Shown here in pieces: positions 8,298 to 64,000 of a stretch of DNA of 64,000 nt. The notes under the pieces are model-generated. The model searched no databases and had not been told where the DNA came from. It worked only from the letters and a program-made list of their open reading frames with translations. Origin of the DNA: an uncultured Lachnospiraceae bacterium (GTDB lineage Bacteria > Bacillota > Clostridia > Lachnospirales > Lachnospiraceae); assembly GCA_910588535.1 (NCBI GenBank), contig CAJUOO010000002.1, forward strand, positions 47,176 to 111,175, read 5' to 3'. Both the position numbers and the translations under genes were made by a program. The first letter of the stretch is position 1, and each line of letters begins with the position of its first letter.

Positions 8298-8870
8298 TCA
8301 ATTTTCACACTGTAGCCTCTTAGCCCGCAACAATGTACTTTTGCTGATGCCTGTCATTTCTGAAACCTCTTTGTAAGAATGATTCTCCAATAGCTCCATA
8401 GCATGATTCAGTTGTGCCCTGCCATACTTCGGTGGTCTTCCCTCCTTAAAGTCAGGGTTCTGCCTTGCTATGGCTTTCCCTTCCCCTGTGCGCTCCACAA
8501 TCATATCACGCTCAAATTCCGCAAATGCAAGCATGACGTTCCGCACCAGCTTCCCCGTAGGGGTATTGTCCATCATGCCCATATTCAGCACATGGACGGT
8601 GATACCCTTATCAAGCAATGACTGTATCAGTTCAATGCCCTGTGTGGCACTTCTGGCTATCCTGTCCAGCTTCGTGACCTTCAATGTATCGCCTGGCTGC
8701 ATGACTGTCAGCAGCTTATCCAGTTCTGGGCGGCGTGATTTCGTTCCCGTAAAAGCATCTGCATAAACCTCCTCTGCCCCTGCTGCCCTTAGTGCGTTCT
8801 CCTGTGCTTCCAGACTGTTCCCGTCCTTTGCCTGTGTCTTTGTTGATACCCTTGCATAACCGTAAATCAT
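8298..8870 (-). CDS. small serine recombinase (resolvase/invertase family)
   Basis: [13 protein letters not shown] carries the catalytic Ser, and there is a C-terminal HTH ([16 protein letters not shown]). The ATG at 8870 has SD AAAGGAGAA. The upstream 44 codons of the track ORF are discarded. Confidence 0.9.
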
Positions 8871-9027
8871 AATGTGTTTCTCCTTTCGTAATTTGATTTC
8901 AGGAATCAAAAAAAGAAGGTCATTACAACCTTCTCCTAATGATACCCATGATTCTATTTTGTTACTTATGAATATAAGAAATGACACCACTGGAAGCCCC
9001 ATAAAACCGTAGGTCAGCAGTTGGTGT

Positions 9028-9045
9028 CATAACTTAAAAGTTATG
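9028..9045. other. perfect palindrome CATAACTT-AA-AAGTTATG (hix/res-like candidate recombinase site)
   Basis: Two 8-bp half sites surround a central AA, about 160 bp upstream of the recombinase start. The loop is too short, and there is no T-run, for a good terminator. Confidence 0.3.
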
Positions 9046-9059
9046 GTACTACACAATAC

Positions 9060-9848
9060 TTACCAAGATAATTTACCATTCTCTATTTGTATCGGTTTAC
9101 CTTGAACGTTTGATAAAACTTGCATGATTCCAGCAAACTGCAATTGCACCCCATTTGACTTAATTGTCACTCTCATTGCATTATTAGGTGTTAATGGTCT
9201 AAACAGTCGTATCGTTTTCATTTTCAATCTAACAGGAGTTCCGTTAATACTTCCATCTACCTCACCTGTACTATCATAATGAGTTGAATCCTCTGGTTGC
9301 ACATCAAATTCTTCATATTTGTTATTAAAAATAAAAGCAAAATTTGCATCATTTTCGCTAAACATCATTGCCCTGATTTCTATTTTAATCAATTTATCTG
9401 ACACAATATCTACTACAGCCTTTACGTTCTCTATATCCGCCAAAGCTTTATATGTACTATTTCCTTTTGCTACGCACTTCATTTGTGCAACTGCATCATC
9501 TAAACCAACTCCATACAAATCTATATATAATGAATCGGTTAATATAGCAGGAGGTTTACAATCCGCAATTCTTACAGGTACAAATTTCAAGTTCTCGTTT
9601 ATGGACTTAGTTAATCCACTTTGCCATTCCTTTGTTACCATCTTACTGTTTAAACTATTTGGAGATAAAAAATAGAAGAATGTAGTAAACTTTTCTATCC
9701 CTTCATTCATTTTTCCAATTATGCTATCTCCTGGCTGTATAGACCATTTATCATAAAAAATATTATTTCTTCCAAATTCCAATTCCAACCTTCTTGCAAC
9801 CATATCTACTATTTGTTCATCATTATGGTTATAACTAATAAAAATCAT
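9060..9848 (-). CDS. TIR-domain protein with ~130-aa beta-rich C-terminal domain
   Basis: MIFISYNHND ... NNIFYDKWSIQPGDSI ... FLSPNSLNSKMVTKEWQSGL matches the bacterial TIR pattern, including the Glu before Trp. The ATG at 9848 has SD AAGGAGG. Confidence 0.85.
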   Translation of the reverse strand: MIFISYNHNDEQIVDMVARRLELEFGRNNIFYDKWSIQPGDSIIGKMNEGIEKFTTFFYFLSPNSLNSKMVTKEWQSGLTKSINENLKFVPVRIADCKPPAILTDSLYIDLYGVGLDDAVAQMKCVAKGNSTYKALADIENVKAVVDIVSDKLIKIEIRAMMFSENDANFAFIFNNKYEEFDVQPEDSTHYDSTGEVDGSINGTPVRLKMKTIRLFRPLTPNNAMRVTIKSNGVQLQFAGIMQVLSNVQGKPIQIENGKLSW

Positions 9849-9934
9849 TTTACATGACCTCCTTCTCAAATGTTATTGTTAATCTATTCTCAGCATATCT
9901 ACGCCATTTAAAATCCTATCCTAAAATTTTTCAA

Positions 9935-13393: not shown

Positions 13394-14194
13394 CTATATA
13401 ATCTCTCCGCGAATTAAATTATAATCTGCTGCACATTTCCTTAATCCATCTATAACAGTGCTAAACCTTACACCATATTTTTTTGCCTTATCACAATTCA
13501 TCCATAAATTATGTCTCGCAGGACTATCTTCTAACTTAACTGTTCTCCCCAATAAATCAATGAATTCTTGAGTAATATCATACATTGATTTTGTTGTTTC
13601 ACTACCAAAATTATATACGCCTCCCGGTAAAGCAATGGCTTTTTCTATGTTTTTTCCTACTTCTTTCAAATATGTAATCCCTCGAAACTGTCTGGAACTA
13701 AACGAGACACTTTCTTTTGCATGAATAATATTCATAAAATAATTTGTTTTGTTCAAATAATAATCATACATCCATTCAGCACGCAATATCACTACATTAG
13801 GATTCATTTCTAATACCCTCTGTTCCATCTCTAACTTATGTTTTGCATATATATTTTTCGGGTTTACTATATCCTCCTGATATGGTCCTTCTTCGTTACA
13901 TCCATTATAAACCTGATCCGAACTAAAACAGACTAATTTCCTGTCTTTTGATGCTTGTGCAATAAAAAGTGGAATTTGCACATTTGCATAATAAGAAGCA
14001 TCTGGGTCAGCTTGACACACTCCCATATCAGAAATAACAGCAGTATGAATAATGACATCTGCGTCACTTTCCGCGATTATGCGATTTATTTCTTCTTGCG
14101 TGACATTACGAAGCGATGGAGCAGCAATTGTATTCTTATATATCTCCATTATTTTATGACCTACAAATCCATTCGCCCCTGTTACCAAAATCAT
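13394..14194 (-). CDS. NAD-dependent epimerase/dehydratase (RmlD-like sugar-nucleotide reductase)
   Basis: Contains the Rossmann motif VTGANGFVG and the YxxxK motif (YAKHK). The ATG at 14194 has SD GGGAGGA 5 nt upstream. Confidence 0.8.
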   Translation of the reverse strand: MILVTGANGFVGHKIMEIYKNTIAAPSLRNVTQEEINRIIAESDADVIIHTAVISDMGVCQADPDASYYANVQIPLFIAQASKDRKLVCFSSDQVYNGCNEEGPYQEDIVNPKNIYAKHKLEMEQRVLEMNPNVVILRAEWMYDYYLNKTNYFMNIIHAKESVSFSSRQFRGITYLKEVGKNIEKAIALPGGVYNFGSETTKSMYDITQEFIDLLGRTVKLEDSPARHNLWMNCDKAKKYGVRFSTVIDGLRKCAADYNLIRGEII

Positions 14195-14348
14195 ACTATC
14201 CTCCCAAATTGTCACTATCTAAATTCACTCAAATCCTACAAATTTCTGCTCTCTTATACTCTCACACAACAAGATTTTTATATGATAGTACAGTTATCCA
14301 TAACTTCTTGTAGGATAAATGTTCGTTCATCATTTTCGAAGAAGGTCC

Positions 14349-14489
14349 GTATAGCCAATCCGCTGTTTTCCTCCGTCACCCCGCTCCCGCTTAGTGAAAA
14401 ACGTAATGGATACTAAGCTCGTAAAATACCTCGCTAAGTACCAACGTTTTTCAATAGGTTCCTTGAGGAAAACAGCGGATTGGCTATAC
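14349..14489 (+). repeat. structured palindromic repeat module 1A (candidate ncRNA / hairpin element)
   Basis: A 23-bp perfect outer stem (GTATAGCCAATCCGCTGTTTTCC / complement) encloses the conserved core TCCGTCACCCCGCTCCCGCTTAGTGAAAAACG ... CGTTTTTCAATAGGTTCCTTGAG. Confidence 0.7.
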
Positions 14490-14839
14490 TACTTTACTAG
14501 ATGTTTCAGACACGCTGTACATCTGCATATACTTACAGCTCCATATCTATTCTTATTCCCTCGAATAACTAGACAAGTGACTGCTTACAGTTATATGATA
14601 ACTGCCATGAAAATCAAAAATTCCACTGCAAATACTCAATTTGACCCACATTTGTAAATTTACACAACTATAGTTATCAAAAGATACTTTGCTGATTTTA
14701 TTTTTTCTATAATCAATACACGTAGAATTGTAAGCAGGAAGTTAGTTTTATGTTGTACAAAATTACCTGTTTTTTGACTTGTGGGTTAAGTTAAATGCAA
14801 GCAGAATTACAATTTGTTTCGCCTAACTGATAAAACAGT

Positions 14840-14975
14840 CTGGTGAATTGTCTGTGGTTCTCAAGGAACCTATTGAAAAACGCCGGCGGTTAGCGAGGTA
14901 GTTTCGAGCTTACCGTCCGTTGCGTTTTTCACTAAGCGGGAGCGGGGTGACGGAGAACCACAGACAATTCACCGG
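14840..14975 (-). repeat. structured palindromic repeat module 1B (inverted relative to 1A)
   Basis: It has the same core in reverse complement. The outer stem differs (CTGGTGAATTGTCTGTGGTTC / GAACCACAGACAATTCACCGG) but is still self-complementary. Confidence 0.7.
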
Positions 14976-15128
14976 ACGGAACTTCCCCAAAATGATACAG
15001 CAAATTTTAAACAACAGAAAAAATATAAAACTCACAAAAAACTATAATAAATTGCTATATTTATCTATCCCAGAAATAAGTAAATTCAGCTAAGAAGATT
15101 ATATACAAAAACTCTCATTCTATTATTT

Positions 15129-15162
15129 AAAAAACAGGCAGAACAACAATATGTCCTGCCTT
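15129..15162 (-). terminator. intrinsic terminator downstream of yhaM
   Basis: On the minus strand: AGGCAGGACATATTGTTGTTCTGCCTGTTTTTT. Confidence 0.5.
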
Positions 15163-15287: not shown

Positions 15288-16244
15288 CTACTCTGGATTG
15301 ATCTGGCTGGTTCTTCTTAGATTCGAGTCAGCAAAGCGATTAAACCCAAGCCAGCCGTCATTGCCAGCCGCATTATCAAGTATCTCTGTCATCATCTCCA
15401 GCTTATCGTCCGCCACATCGGCAAAATTAAGTGCCATCGCCTCCACAAGTGCTGGTTTCTTTGGCGAACCAAATTCTAGCTCACCGTGATGTGCCAAGAT
15501 ACAGTGCTTCAACTCACTTGCAAGTTTTTGTGGAAAGCCCTCTATTTTTCTAATATGTTCACCGATCAGCTCACTTCCAATAACAATATGCCCCAGAAGC
15601 TGTCCATCGTCTGTATAATCATTCTCTGGAAAAGCAGAGATCTCCCAAACCTTTCCTATATCATGGAACATGGCCGCAGGAATCAAAAGATCATATTGCA
15701 ACACCTTATAATTCTCTGTAAAATATGAACATATCTTTGTAACTCCGAGCGTATGCTCCAACAAACCGCCTATAAATCCGTGATGGACTGTCTTTGCCGC
15801 AGAATGTTTTTTAAACCTATTGATAAATTCCTGATCCTCCACAAAAAAGCTGTCAACCAACTTCTTCATGTAGGGATTGCGAATTTTAGCCGCATAGCCC
15901 ATCAACTCACAATACATCTGTTCAATATCCCGGCTGCTTGCCGGAAGATAATCTGCCGGATTACAGTCCTTTGCCTCAATTTTGCGAATACGCTTAATAT
16001 TTAACTGTTTTGTGCCGTTAAAGACCGTCACCTCACCCATAACCTCAACATAATCGAGTGAATCAAAATCCTCTATTCCCATGGAATTTGGCTCCCAGAT
16101 CTTTGCGTCAAGAACTCCCGTCTTATCCTGCAAGATAACATTGTCATAAGCCTTCCCATTCTTTGTCACTGCTGACTGCTTATATTTACACAAGTACACA
16201 GACTGTACCCGCTCTCCTTCTGTGATATCCTTAATATATTTCAT
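15288..16244 (-). CDS. yhaM: 3'-5' exoribonuclease YhaM (OB-fold + HD domain)
   Basis: It has an N-terminal OB-fold pattern (VYLCKYKQSAVTKNGKAYDNVILQDKTG) and an HD domain (MFHDIGK, ILAHHG). SD GGAGG is 6 nt upstream. Confidence 0.85.
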   Translation of the reverse strand: MKYIKDITEGERVQSVYLCKYKQSAVTKNGKAYDNVILQDKTGVLDAKIWEPNSMGIEDFDSLDYVEVMGEVTVFNGTKQLNIKRIRKIEAKDCNPADYLPASSRDIEQMYCELMGYAAKIRNPYMKKLVDSFFVEDQEFINRFKKHSAAKTVHHGFIGGLLEHTLGVTKICSYFTENYKVLQYDLLIPAAMFHDIGKVWEISAFPENDYTDDGQLLGHIVIGSELIGEHIRKIEGFPQKLASELKHCILAHHGELEFGSPKKPALVEAMALNFADVADDKLEMMTEILDNAAGNDGWLGFNRFADSNLRRTSQINPE

Positions 16245-25608: not shown

Positions 25609-27432
25609 CTAACCAACAGGCTGATCCCAAGGTCCAGAGGGACCCTGCTGACTTGGCTGCGACCCCGGTCCAGACGAATAGCCCGGTCCCTGTTGGTAAG
25701 AATTATCTGGCTGTGAACTCGGTCCAGACTGTGGTCCCTGTTGGGATGGCATACCCGGTGTACCTGATGGTCCCTGCTGGTATGAATTATCTGGTGTACC
25801 TGATGGGTTTTGTTGATCAGAATTTTCTGGCGTGCCCGACGATCCCTGCTGATAAGGACCTTGCTGACCGGGATTATCTGGCGTACTAGGTGGATTCTGC
25901 TGACCAGAATTATCTGGTGTGCCCGATGGATTTTGTTGGCCAGAATTTTCTGGCGTACCAGATGAATTTTGCTGATCCGCTGGATCTGCCACTGCTGGGA
26001 CATCTTCTGGATTTTCAGGGTTCTCCGATGATGGCTCCTCTGAAACCGTTGCCCCCGGTCCCACTGAGATATAATTTGGTGCCGGCGCATAATAACTTGA
26101 ATTTACCTTTTCTTTCGAAACCTGAACACCATCTACATATACATATTTATATAGCTCTGCGCGATAGCCCGTGTGAGAACTTTGTGTCACCTTTCTGGCT
26201 CCCTCAGGAAGCGATGGATCTTCCTTTATCACATCCTCCGGCGGATTAATCACCTCTATCACTGTATTCTTATACTCAACCTTTCTGTTGGCAGGACGTT
26301 CATCCAAACCATAGATATTGAATGTGACACGCTTGTCCTTTGTGTAGCCCTCAATATAGATTGGAGCATTTGTATTATTTGTAAATACAAAATCCATACC
26401 ACTGCTCTCTGCTATCGCAGCATCTGAGGAAAGCTGCACATAACCAACTGTCAATCCATGATTATAGCGCTGATTCACCTCAAGCTCTGCCAACAAAACA
26501 GAATTATAAAGAGTGGTTGACACCTGACATACTCCGCCACCATAGCTGTCCACCAACATTCCACCCATGTAAGAGCCCGCTGGGAAATATCCATTTTCAG
26601 CGGTAAATGGAAGCATATGCTCCAGACAGGAGAATTTGTCTCCCGGCATCAAAACAGCTCCATTGATCTTTGAGACGGCCGCATCAATATTTTTGCATCT
26701 AGAACTTCCCGAAGAAGTGTATGATGTAGTAAATTCTGCCATCGGCGTAGATTGAATCTTAGCACACTCTGCAGCAGTCACCCTAGGATTCTGCACAGCT
26801 CCCACAAGACTCACTGTACAATCCTCATAATTCCAGCTTTCCAACATATAATTCTTCACTGCCAGAATAGAAGCTTCTATATCCACAGTACTTCCCACCT
26901 GCTCAGGAGTAATAGAAAAACCCTGCTCTGTCTTCTGGATCACAGCATCTACTGCTGGACTTTCCAATGTCCCAAGATTCGCCTCAATCCATGCTCTTAT
27001 CTTCGCATCATCAACAGCGATCTCTAGATCCAACGATGTCTCTGTATAAGCGAGATCCTTCTTCACCTTATATCTTCGAATTACATTCCCAGACTTACCC
27101 ATCTGATCAATATTGTCAAAGACATCGGGATTTGCCCATGACAGCCCAACCTCTGCCATCGAAGACTCTATTTTCTTATCGTCACTTCCCTCCAGAGCAA
27201 GCGTAATCTTTTTTGAACGAAGCTCTTCCATATAAGCTTCCACTGCTGCTTTTGCTTCTTCTTTTGTCATGCCGCCGACCTCTACTGGTCCAACTTTCAC
27301 ACCATCATACACAACTGCCTCTGACGCTTCTGACGTCTCCGCCGCGTATGCAGGACATACTGCCGTTCCCGCCACCGCTGTTAAACTCAGCACGACGGAA
27401 GCCACCATCGCGTAAGCATGATTCCTTTTCAT
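25609..27432 (-). CDS. VanW-family protein with G5 domain and Q/P/S/G-rich repetitive C-terminal tail
   Basis: It has a signal/anchor sequence (AYAMVASVVLSLTAVAG), a VanW core (GGGVCQVSTTLYN) and a G5-like segment. The ATG at 27432 (SD GGAGG) is preferred over the TTG at 27492. Confidence 0.8.
   Translation of the reverse strand: MKRNHAYAMVASVVLSLTAVAGTAVCPAYAAETSEASEAVVYDGVKVGPVEVGGMTKEEAKAAVEAYMEELRSKKITLALEGSDDKKIESSMAEVGLSWANPDVFDNIDQMGKSGNVIRRYKVKKDLAYTETSLDLEIAVDDAKIRAWIEANLGTLESPAVDAVIQKTEQGFSITPEQVGSTVDIEASILAVKNYMLESWNYEDCTVSLVGAVQNPRVTAAECAKIQSTPMAEFTTSYTSSGSSRCKNIDAAVSKINGAVLMPGDKFSCLEHMLPFTAENGYFPAGSYMGGMLVDSYGGGVCQVSTTLYNSVLLAELEVNQRYNHGLTVGYVQLSSDAAIAESSGMDFVFTNNTNAPIYIEGYTKDKRVTFNIYGLDERPANRKVEYKNTVIEVINPPEDVIKEDPSLPEGARKVTQSSHTGYRAELYKYVYVDGVQVSKEKVNSSYYAPAPNYISVGPGATVSEEPSSENPENPEDVPAVADPADQQNSSGTPENSGQQNPSGTPDNSGQQNPPSTPDNPGQQGPYQQGSSGTPENSDQQNPSGTPDNSYQQGPSGTPGMPSQQGPQSGPSSQPDNSYQQGPGYSSGPGSQPSQQGPSGPWDQPVG
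25612..26015 (-). repeat. degenerate in-frame tandem repeats encoding (QQNPSGTPDNSG)-like units
   Basis: Repeated CTGGTGTRCCYGATGG-like units are visible in the DNA, and the protein tail is low-complexity. Confidence 0.6.
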
Positions 27433-30985: not shown

Positions 30986-31056
30986 GCGGGTGTAGTTCAA
31001 TGGTAGAACACTAGCCTTCCAAGCTAGATACGTGGGTTCGATTCCCATCACCCGCT
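30986..31056 (+). tRNA. tRNA-Gly (anticodon UCC)
   Basis: Cloverleaf folded by hand: acceptor GCGGGTG/CACCCGC, anticodon loop CTTCCAA, T-loop TTCGATT. No encoded CCA. Confidence 0.9.
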
Positions 31057-31085
31057 CTGGCGTCAGTTTAATATTATTTTTGTAT

Positions 31086-31157
<72 letters not shown>

Positions 31158-61940: not shown

Positions 61941-63302
61941 TTACAGCTCTCTCATAAAAAGATTGGTACTTCCAAATGCCTGAAGAGGAAGCTGATAGGC
62001 CGACGTCTGTTCCTTTTTTATCCCACATTCGCCCAGCTGTTCTAATATCTCCGCCGGACATTTCTTGTTGGCAACCAGATAGTATGCCTGCGGATAATTT
62101 TTTACCGCCTCTTCCGGCGGCAGGATTATATGCCCATAAAAGCTTTTTCCCCATTTTTCTCTGTTATTATCACAGACAGCCACGATATTTTCTAGTCGGT
62201 TCATCCGCATAAGGCATAGAGCAAATTTTGCTGCTTTTCCACTGCCAAATATAACAATCTGCTCTTTATCAGCCATCTTTTTAACAAAATCCCCATATAA
62301 GTCATGGTCTGCTTTTGCTTTTATTTCTATATAATCCTCATAAGACGCCGGCTTTTCTGTAAATAACCGCATCTCAATCCAATGCTGAGGCAGCATCTCC
62401 TCTTGTTTTAACAGCCCGTCTTCTCTGTCTTTTATAATTATCTGACGAAATTCGTCCAGCACAGCAAGAATTGCTTTGTCTGGCTGGCTGTGTTCTCTGT
62501 ATGTTGTATATGGGGACAATGCCATCATCACCGTTTCTCTCGCGAAAAAAGCTCGTCTCGCTCTATCTGTCAATCCGTCCTCTTCCATCCTTTTTCTAAT
62601 ATATTTATATTCCGCAAGATTAAATTCTGCAAATCTTGAATTATAGGTGGAGGAGGCCGCGTTGTCTCTTCGATAATGATAGAATAGCTGACTTAAAAAC
62701 ATCCCTCTTCTCAGATTCATATCGGTTAAATAACGAAAACCACAATCCTGAAAAGCTGCTCCCTTCGTTTCATTGAGCCGAATATGAAATTCACGAAGAA
62801 ACGATAGCTTATATATACCATTCCATATGTAAATATCAGGAGACAGCCTGTTTTCTGTAAAATATTGATAGGATAGTATCTTATCACAATCAGTGAAAGG
62901 ATATTCCAAAAGATATTGTTCTTTTTCATAGGGTGTCACTAATGTACAAAAGCCTGCCTTGACATAATCCAACTCTTTCTCTACAGCAGCTTGATATAGA
63001 GTTTCATACATATCTGGCTCTATACTGTCATCTGTCTCTACAATTCCCAGATATTCTCCCTTCGCGATGTCCATACCCAAATTAACTTGATAGCCATAAC
63101 TTTTTTTGTCAGAACAAATAAGATGAATCCGCTGATCTTTGGCGGCATACTCTTTTATTATTTCGCAGGTGCCGTCTGTGGAACCGGCATCGATACATAA
63201 AATTTCTATATCAGATAATGTTTGATTCATTACACTTTCTATACATTCTCCTATATATGCTACCACATTTAAGGATGGCAGGATAACAGATATTTTCGGC
63301 AT
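61941..63302 (-). CDS. family 2 glycosyltransferase with C-terminal extension
   Basis: Contains ISVILPSLNVVAYIGECIESVMNQT ... DAGSTDGT and a DxD-type motif (ETDD). Confidence 0.85.
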   Translation of the reverse strand: MPKISVILPSLNVVAYIGECIESVMNQTLSDIEILCIDAGSTDGTCEIIKEYAAKDQRIHLICSDKKSYGYQVNLGMDIAKGEYLGIVETDDSIEPDMYETLYQAAVEKELDYVKAGFCTLVTPYEKEQYLLEYPFTDCDKILSYQYFTENRLSPDIYIWNGIYKLSFLREFHIRLNETKGAAFQDCGFRYLTDMNLRRGMFLSQLFYHYRRDNAASSTYNSRFAEFNLAEYKYIRKRMEEDGLTDRARRAFFARETVMMALSPYTTYREHSQPDKAILAVLDEFRQIIIKDREDGLLKQEEMLPQHWIEMRLFTEKPASYEDYIEIKAKADHDLYGDFVKKMADKEQIVIFGSGKAAKFALCLMRMNRLENIVAVCDNNREKWGKSFYGHIILPPEEAVKNYPQAYYLVANKKCPAEILEQLGECGIKKEQTSAYQLPLQAFGSTNLFMREL

Positions 63303-63381
63303 ATTGCACCTCCATTTTCATTATTAATAACTATAACTTCTTGTAAGATAAGTTTTTTGACATCATTTTCGAAAGAGGTTC

Positions 63382-63522
63382 GTATAGCCAGTCCGCTGTT
63401 TTCCTCCGTCACCCCGCTCCCGCTTAGTGAAAAACGTAACGGATACTAAGCTCGTAAAACACCTCGCTAAGTACCAACGTTTTTCAATAGGTTCCTTGAG
63501 GAAAACAGCGGGCTGGCTATAC
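63382..63522 (+). repeat. structured palindromic repeat module 2A
   Basis: Near-identical to module 1A. The outer stem carries one compensated A-T to G-C change and one T-G pair. Confidence 0.7.
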
Positions 63523-63691
63523 TGCTTTGCTGAATATTTCACATACGCTGTGATTCTTCATATACTTGCAGCTTTGTGTCTATTTTTTGTATTCATAGAT
63601 CATCAAATTTTTTTAAGGAAGACAATAAAAATTATCTATCAATCCTATACAAGCAGAGATACAGCGTGTTTTGCCTTATCGATAAAAACAG

Positions 63692-63829
63692 CCCGGCGAA
63701 CTGCCTATGGTCCTCAAGGAACCTATTGAAAAACGCTGGCGCTTAGCAAGGTATTATCGAGCTTAGCGTCCACTGCGTTTTTCACTAAGCGAGAGCAGGG
63801 TGACGGAGGACCATAGGCAGTTCGCCGGG
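63692..63829 (-). repeat. structured palindromic repeat module 2B (inverted relative to 2A)
   Basis: The core is nearly the same as in 1B (2 substitutions, CCCCGCTCCC to CCCTGCTCTC). The 22-bp perfect outer stem (CCCGGCGAACTGCCTATGGTCC / complement) differs from 1B at 5 positions, all compensated. Confidence 0.7.
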
Positions 63830-64000
63830 TGGATCTCTCCAGAAAATGATACAGCAAATTTTTAACAGCAAATAAAGTATAACACTTACAAAAAAGTATA
63901 CAAAATGGCATAGAACAACGCTTATCCAAAGCAATTCTTATATGTTTTCACATGCAAAAATCTTTCTCTAACTAAAATCTGTTTCATTTCCTTATATGCT

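Follow-up and report, generated by a model that had tools for sequence, protein, structure and literature searches.

The 64,000-nt stretch of DNA analyzed here (the window) is part of contig CAJUOO010000002.1 of an uncultured Lachnospiraceae bacterium, and repeat comparison showed that it holds two copies of one composite element, at 14295-15055 (locus 1) and 63328-63909 (locus 2). Each copy is composed of two hairpin modules of about 140 nt, A and B, which lie in inverted orientation with a variable centre between them. Locus 1 comprises an outer flank, module 1A (14349-14489, plus strand), a 349-nt centre (14490-14838), module 1B (14839-14976), whose core is the reverse complement of the A core, and a second outer flank. 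We refer to the reading of A modules on the plus strand and of B modules on the minus strand as the X orientation. A second copy of this fold-back structure with a shorter centre, of about 170 bp, had been described from the sequence of locus 2, and we found it as described, with module 2A at 63382-63522 (plus strand), module 2B at 63692-63829 (X orientation on the minus strand) and a variable centre, M, of 169 nt (63523-63691).

Locus 2 begins with an A-side outer flank (63328-63381) that is conserved with locus 1 and with copies in metagenome-assembled genomes (MAGs), as judged by repeat comparison, an alignment of six composites and a comparison of the flanks of 45 modules; it contains CTTGTAAG (63340-63347; TTACAAG in the outward reading) and ATCATTTTCGAAAGAGGTTC (63362-63381). 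The outer stem of module 2A pairs 63382-63406 with 63498-63522 and encloses a conserved core (63407-63497) with three parts: an internal loop of 15 nt that is rich in C (CGTCACCCCGCTCCC), an inner helix (GCTTAGTGAAAAACG.../...CGTTTTTCAATAGG) and an apical helix. The predicted fold of this module has an energy of -66 to -71 kcal/mol (z -8 to -10) and agrees with the list of pairs and with the covariation described below. In module 2B, where 63692-63715 pairs with 63806-63829, the core is again the reverse complement of the A core, and the arm sequence is unrelated to that of 2A. The sequence CTGTTTTTATCG (63680-63691) directly follows the 2B hairpin on the minus strand, and the B-side outer flank (63830-63909) carries GGATCTCTCCAGAAAATGAT and then, at 63886-63902, CTTACAAAAAAGTATAC, a terminal motif common to the repeat family. 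The first 65 nt or so of the locus-2 centre, and about the last 45 nt, align with the centre of locus 1, in keeping with the homology that had been proposed for the ends of the two centres; these conserved edges belong to the inverted repeat itself, as a GTATTYCAGACACGTT-like inner flank. All four window modules form a long hairpin on either strand, with energies of -65 to -86 kcal/mol and z-scores of -8.3 to -12.2 against dinucleotide shuffles, and an invariant 22-mer occurs four times in the window against an expectation of zero; the recurrence of the repeat is far beyond chance. A short motif, TTACAAG or TTACAAA, is found in direct orientation on either side of every hairpin, with about 45-70 nt between it and the arms (63340-63347, about 63565-63572, 63886-63893 and 14307-14314 in the window, and also in MAG copies), and could be a protein-binding site or an outward -35 box.

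The original prediction rested on the way in which the two copies differ, and the list of pairs reproduced those differences with one amendment. Module 2A departs from 1A by the change of one A-T pair to G-C and by one new T.G pair. Between 1B and 2B the five outer-stem differences that had been counted do fall within the 22-bp stretch considered, whereas seven pairs differ over the full 24-bp stem: six of these (pairs 1, 6, 10, 13, 16 and 21) are fully compensated double transitions, and pair 3 is T.G in 1B and C-G in 2B. The apical helix changes from CGG/CCG in 1B to CGC/GCG in 2B, and the 2B core carries two substitutions, both in the C-rich loop (CCCCGCTCCC to CCCTGCTCTC), as had been noted.

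The element is a dispersed multi-copy repeat and not the two-locus feature that the window alone showed. Species-representative genomes searched with a 20-mer from the core yielded, among the matches listed, at least 17 loci in the uncultured Clostridia MAG CAMUFS01, at least 18 in CAMWWW01, and one locus in a MAG labelled as Bacilli, the remaining 20-mer matches being due to chance. About 45 further modules were found in the two Clostridia MAGs, at 17 or more loci in each, and a hidden Markov model of the core gave 56 hits in the MAG loci and the window, including 35 full-length modules. The clade that carries the family is one of uncultured Clostridia, probably within the Lachnospiraceae. 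Where modules lie close together they nearly always face each other, 300-560 nt apart. The sole exception was found on contig L037 (6440-6955), where a module with a B-type 5' arm is followed by a core in the "wrong" orientation (C, not its reverse complement C') and the contig ends inside this second core; this is either a flipped core or an assembly artefact.

With the 21 modules from other genomes that have complementary arms added to the four of the window, giving a covariation set of 25, it is evident that the pairing of the hairpin is maintained while the arm sequence drifts. Standard pairs made up 95.3% of the cells of the stem alignment, compared with a mean of 81.7% in shuffled data, both sides had changed in 28 of 50 pairs (177 cells), and the covariation score was 0.373, compared with 0.122 in the shuffles, none of which (0/500) reached the observed values. 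When the 3' partner was shifted by one to three columns as a register control, pairing was 34-46% and at most 10 pairs were changed on both sides. Covarying pairs were found in the outer stem (19/25) and in the inner helices (9/25), where they occur at single pairs, and one-sided changes were very rare, with about 6 such cells against the 177 that changed on both sides. Mean pairwise identity was 53-57% for the arms, against 89-94% for the helices and loops of the core; the apical loop (80%) and the adjacent flanks (73-76%) were intermediate. The asymmetric features of the core, which are a 15-nt internal loop opposite one of 5 nt and several bulges, are almost invariant across genera. Since arms that share only 53-57% identity are nevertheless paired, the sequence of the arm is essentially free and its complementarity is what is kept. 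The proposal that pairing rather than sequence is maintained therefore still holds when independent modules are added, and uncompensated stem changes were not of a frequency similar to that of loop changes, the dissimilar arms being 92% paired. Covariation of this strength means that any comparative screen will flag the element as a "structured RNA".

The mismatches give little guidance as to which strand is used. Among the variable pairs, the cells that do not form Watson-Crick pairs comprised 9 G.U, 17 A.C and about 24 mismatches of the transversion type, and an independent gapped comparison of the arms gave 8 against 12 for the two transition types, so that wobble pairs are not enriched on either strand. 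RNAs under long-term structural selection normally show an enrichment of wobble pairs. Only the X orientation allows two invariant G.U pairs (GCUUA with UAGGU), and the same is true of a closing helix between an A/G-rich 5' flank and a U-rich 3' flank; these pairs prove nothing about the strand, because they never vary. As the original prediction had held, the functional strand cannot be called from sequence, and the same applies to the choice between RNA and DNA. The combination of a free stem with a frozen, asymmetric interior points to a specific protein as the putative partner.

Alignment of six composites from three genomes set the boundaries of the unit and indicated that the composite is repeated as a whole, with flanks and centre edges conserved across genera, so that the repeated unit is about 300 nt per side and not 140. 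Composites measure 540-850 nt and consist of two inverted repeats of about 300 nt around a spacer of 100-350 nt that has no conserved open reading frame (ORF). Each repeat begins with an outer flank of about 60 nt ending near ..TTACAAAAAcTTATAy, which is followed by GAGAAAGGTCCGC, a variable arm of 20 nt, the conserved asymmetric core of 95 nt, the complementary arm, then GCTGCTTTTTT and finally some 35 nt of inner flank (GTATTCCAGACACGTT). Two arm types occur in each composite, A (e.g., GCATAGCCA......CTATTTCC) and B (e.g., GCnCAGAGA.....CTATAGTCC), and A and B cores group by type across loci, not within an element. A "long" variant of the module, found with both arm types, has an apical insertion of about 30 nt (..GAAGCATATCGCATAATTCGCAAGCTCATTATGC..) that forms an extra hairpin; it was seen at L024:2827-2954, L029:7156-7284, L039:4266-4399 and L042:2922-3050, and further at L008:2864-2991, L030:230-356 and L040:4087-4213. 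Most other contigs of the window's species end at the arm/core boundary of module A: contigs L004, L006 and L062-L070, which carry the RmlD-like or the glycosyltransferase gene, start at positions equivalent to about 14372-14398 and 63402-63406 of the window. These ends are repeat-induced assembly breaks, and the practical consequence is that most public assemblies of this species are interrupted by the element precisely at its hairpin core.

In both window loci the A side faces a minus-strand gene of sugar metabolism. A family-2 glycosyltransferase gene (61941-63302, Pfam assignment) lies immediately downstream of the A side of locus 2, and an RmlD-like sugar-nucleotide reductase gene (13394-14194, also assigned by Pfam) lies downstream of the A side of locus 1. 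On an 84-kb contig of the same strain (L001) the locus-2 element exactly fills a 620-nt gap between same-strand glycosyltransferase genes in a long polysaccharide cluster. The association with sugar genes is not general, as MAG copies adjoin a type I restriction operon and glyQS, the S10 ribosomal-protein operon and groES-groEL, with further neighbours that include sugar ABC permeases and a glycosidase, parA, MatE pumps, ABC transporters and two-component systems. The element is not gene-specific. Of 39 cases, its outer side faced a gene's 3' end in 21, where the stop codon was typically 14-116 nt away, and a gene start in the other 18. No gene is enclosed by a module pair among the MAG and window loci, and the 25 most frequent of the 176 families recorded for 122 ORFs within 2.5 kb of modules include no transposase or recombinase family. 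A conserved leader of the RmlD or glycosyltransferase genes was also considered and was rejected, as RmlD orthologues from three other lineages (77-80% protein identity) have no module and no comparable fold-back structure upstream.

The element was gained or lost between related genomes. CAMUFS01 and CAMWWW01 share a syntenic block of 4.9 kb at 82% identity, at the upstream edge of which CAMWWW01 has half an element, comprising module A with the outer flank and a portion of the centre, and CAMUFS01 has unrelated sequence; this pair of occupied and empty sites places the end of the element at ..CTTATATTTTATCAAAA. Together with copies that share arms, it maps the ends to about ..AAGTATA and ..TTATAyTTT. 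At L011:2722-2884 a single module lies between convergent genes, with a B-type 5' arm, a non-complementary A-like 3' arm and outer-type flanks on both sides, which we read as a composite that collapsed by deletion between the directly repeated halves of its quasi-palindromic cores.

Comparisons with databases placed the element in no named family, and no prior description of it was found. At the gathering threshold, Rfam 15 returned only two tRNAs for the whole window, and at E<=10 the best match in 63250-64000, to a plant microRNA model, reached 25.6 bits where the threshold is 80 and is noise; a known RNA family was rejected on these grounds. An origin from a plasmid, phage or virus was likewise rejected, as a distant blastn search of the whole element against annotated plasmids and phages found no match and neither did a scan of viral contigs. 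Two patterns searched in JGI metagenomes gave 0 and 14 hits, with the short ENA contig L056 as the only real partial copy. The core sequence was not found in the literature searched, and searches on invertons and on MITEs (miniature inverted-repeat transposable elements) brought up no description of the element.

Comparison by general description, and not by sequence, nevertheless suggests relatives in kind, namely REP/BIME/REPIN repeats and palindromic MITEs, of which this would be a variant with real differences. REP, BIME and REPIN repeats of Proteobacteria are intergenic, imperfect palindromes present in hundreds of copies, with units of 20-40 nt that form inverted pairs of two distinguishable types (Y and Z REPs) around a linker and hairpins that compensatory substitutions preserve. 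A frequent location is directly behind a stop codon, where the repeats terminate transcription or stabilize the mRNA, and a single-copy enzyme mobilizes them in trans. The element resembles them as an intergenic multi-copy palindrome arranged in inverted doublets of two types, with compensated hairpins and frequent placement after stop codons. It differs in its unit length (about 140 nt, or 300 nt with flanks, the units being four to five times larger), its tens of copies rather than hundreds, its host among the Clostridia, and its division of conservation, in which the interior and the flanks of the hairpin are conserved and the stem is variable; no gene of the RAYT type (Y1 HUH transposase) was identified.

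Similar comparisons can be made with the MITE-like Correia elements of Neisseria, ERIC/IRU of enterobacteria, RUP/BOX of Streptococcus and bcr1 of Bacillus cereus, which are co-transcribed as stable hairpins. Like these, the element is non-coding, smaller than 1 kb, bounded by long terminal inverted repeats, dispersed in many intergenic copies and polymorphic for presence and absence, and it has internal length variants (here the core insertion of about 30 nt). Unlike them, each of its terminal repeats contains a 140-nt hairpin, a palindrome inside a palindrome, and neither a target-site duplication nor a parent insertion sequence nor similarity to plasmids or phages was found. Invertons, the invertible promoters of gut bacteria, are similar in that inverted repeats enclose a short segment that is non-coding and is located upstream of polysaccharide genes, here in a gut-type Firmicute, but inverton repeats are 10-40 nt long, compared with about 300 nt here, and only one orientation was seen in the full-length assemblies read, most members of the family adjoin housekeeping genes and no recombinase is linked to them. 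The conservation of structure over stem sequence, together with asymmetric bulges and loops that could mark one strand, is also reminiscent of integron attC sites, the ends of IS200/IS605 elements and the attP site of CTX phage, and a likeness to such folded single-strand recombination sites fits the lack of an RNA-type wobble signature. In contrast to attC, the core sequence here is highly conserved and the modules come in pairs of opposite orientation rather than all pointing the same way; the neighbourhood contains no integrase, HUH transposase or cassette array.

We put at roughly one in two the probability that the element is a non-autonomous repeat of the REPIN/BIME/MITE kind, whose hairpin would be needed for its own propagation and which in transcripts would serve as a terminator or insulator that faces inward. 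In appearance it is closer to a genome repeat of the REP/MITE type that punctuates transcription than to a gene-specific regulatory RNA. The stalk-plus-core hairpin with its conserved loops would be the structure recognized by a trans-acting protein (a transposase, a nuclease or a DNA- or RNA-binding factor), which would propagate or use the element, probably on a folded single strand, because neither strand shows the wobble signature of an RNA. Transcription entering from either side would read the first module in the X orientation, as a very stable hairpin with a U-rich tract, and the composite would then act as a bidirectional, inward-facing terminator or insulator and as a stabilizer of 3' ends. 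The gene downstream of the A side, which is the glycosyltransferase gene at locus 2 and the RmlD-like gene at locus 1, would rely on a promoter located at the A-side end or slightly beyond it, where a weak candidate, CTTACA-16-AATAAT, is present (63347-63320, minus strand). In the X orientation the hairpin is followed by T[A/G][C/T]TTTT(TT); compared with an intrinsic (Rho-independent) terminator, in which a U-tract immediately follows a stable G+C-containing stem, the hairpin is long, at 140 nt, interruptions fall within the first U positions, and 1A and 2A have a degenerate tract. If this reading is correct, gut Clostridia have a large counterpart of their own to REP/BIME and MITE repeats, and it would be a portable element for the punctuation of transcription that can land inside operons, here polysaccharide clusters, and alter downstream expression.

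Several observations weigh against this reading. The U-tract is interrupted (UGCUUUU / UACUUUUUU) and is poor in the A modules of the window (CTACTTTAC, CTGCTTTGC), and as the arms of 1A and 2A are perfect despite these decayed tracts, termination alone does not explain the pairing. A strand-specific RNA is one possible meaning of the invariant pairs and closing helix, which are confined to the X orientation. Conservation in classical MITEs is found in the terminal repeats, whereas here each repeat contains the most variable part. The element does have terminal inverted repeats, a small size, no coding capacity and many dispersed copies, as MITEs do, and inverted doublets like those of REPINs, although its units are longer and its copies fewer than the 20-40 nt and hundreds of copies of REP sequences; no transposase, RAYT-like gene or other autonomous partner was seen in about 200 kb of flanking sequence. 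At the mapped ends, for which there was no clean two-junction empty site, no consistent target-site duplication was seen.

Some of this evidence could be accommodated if each module were a gene for a small structured RNA, read from the outer flank in the X orientation to give a rod-like transcript of about 165 nt that would run from about ..UCGAGAAAGG to the U-tract, the composite being two convergent genes. The invariant C-rich internal loop (CCGUCACCCCGCUCCC) would then bind a protein or G-rich targets such as Shine-Dalgarno regions, and the perfect arm of 23-25 bp would be a sequence-independent processing stalk, for example a substrate of RNase III. The very strong covariation in both helices and the conserved asymmetric loops are what such genes would show, as are the two invariant G.U pairs and the closing helix of 5'-GAGAAAGG with CUUUUUU-3' in the X orientation, a TATAAT-like box (..TTTGTATAATCATTTTCGAG) at a fixed upstream distance in many copies and the U-rich tract after the hairpin. 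However, the -10-like box is degenerate in many copies (GTGAATTAT, GTAGGAATC, and CATCAT in the window) and has no properly spaced -35, the inner flank is conserved beyond the U-tract, which is itself poor in the A modules of the window, the variable pairs lack G.U enrichment (9 G.U against 17 A.C) and no Rfam family matches, and we consider such genes quite unlikely. Promoters of the sigma-70 type, one belonging to each module, and promoters facing outward at the ends were dropped as candidates, since only weak and inconsistently spaced boxes were found. The pairing may instead have no function, with the arms of a purely selfish or decaying repeat kept complementary during replication through template switches within a strand (quasipalindrome correction) or through gene conversion involving the two arms. 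This templated correction is an alternative to selection for the perfect outer arms: it would account for arm mismatches of all types with no preference for wobble, for the roughly 6 one-sided against 177 double changes expected if both arms change in one event, and for arms that stay perfect in modules with a decayed U-tract. Such a process would be expected to remove the irregularities of the core as well, and yet the bulges, mismatches and 15-nt versus 5-nt loop found there are almost invariant across genera; these frozen asymmetries mean that purely mechanical correction is insufficient; the inner helices moreover covary at single pairs, like those in ordinary compensatory evolution, and the flanks are about 75% conserved with no pairing partner. 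As a full account of the element it is unlikely.

An invertible switch, in which the segment of arm, centre and arm would be turned round by site-specific recombination between the invariant blocks of the A and B cores (a5-C-a3-M-b5-C'-b3 to a5-C-b3-M'-a5-C'-b3), would address another property of the modules, namely that their arms pair within a module and differ between A and B. The window orientation, S1, would be OFF, with complementary arms, terminator-like hairpins and a promoter-like site pointing away from the gene, and the inverted orientation, S2, would be ON, with one A and one B arm in each module, no hairpin and the centre facing the gene. Inverted repeats do flank a polar centre, and the order B, centre, A, gene was found in all five composites with a scorable downstream gene. 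Both window loci lie in polysaccharide gene clusters, and in both a promoter-like site faces away from the gene: a sigma-70-like TTCACA-17-TATACT on the plus strand of the locus-2 centre (63538-63566; 10/12 matches) and TTCAGA-17-TATACT in the locus-1 centre (14505-14533; 9/12). Five of the 35 full modules, all in MAG contigs, carry exactly the chimeric arm combinations that inversion predicts, and a small serine recombinase gene (8298-9002) lies 5.3 kb from locus 1. Yet the full-length assemblies read (L001, L002, L003 and L005 for locus 2 and L061 for locus 1, a set beside which there are up to 20 further similar contigs) were all in the S1 orientation and 100% identical over the element, as assemblies and not as reads. 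Most of the chimeric modules lie at contig ends, where assembly chimeras are expected because a 95-nt repeat with invariant blocks of 23-33 nt is present; as proof of inversion they were downgraded, the collapsed composite of L011 being one of them. MAG copies adjoin essential genes (the S10 operon, groEL and glyQS), neither a recombinase nor a homologue of the serine recombinase of the window was found near them, and the promoter-like site is not conserved in them on reading the aligned copies; the clustering of A and B cores by type across loci, and not within the element, is a further point against recombination between the two. An invertible switch is not supported, and we regard it as improbable. 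A likeness of CGTTTTTCAATAGG to a half-site of the Hin/Gin-type hix site was also dropped, as there is no 12-2-12 dyad and A and B do not have the same dinucleotide at the would-be crossover (AA, GG, AG, GA). Improbable to a similar degree, in our judgement, is a new kind of folded recognition element, read as a single-stranded DNA hairpin or as RNA, in which a sequence-free stalk of 23-25 bp would present an invariant asymmetric core to a protein; its most interesting form would be a "terminator switch" subject to phase variation. Exchange of the A and B arms by recombination at the invariant core blocks would make or destroy two terminator hairpins at once, which would explain why arms pair within a module yet differ between the two modules of an element.

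Other features of the window were noted in the course of this work. The serine recombinase (Resolvase and HTH_7 domains, about 190 amino acids from an internal Met) adjoins a TIR-domain protein on the minus strand, and the pair (8298-9869) resembles a defence or mobile islet. The gene immediately upstream of locus 1 (15288-16244, minus strand) encodes a protein with HD and OB-fold domains that looks like a YhaM-type 3'-5' exoribonuclease, and the conventional terminator-like site of this gene (15136-15161) lies about 80 nt before the B-side end of the locus. Midway between the two repeat loci are two adjacent tRNA genes on the plus strand (30986-31157), 30 nt apart, and a long minus-strand ORF contains, at 25733-25976, two tandem units of about 123 nt with 72% identity, which are probably a protein-internal repeat.

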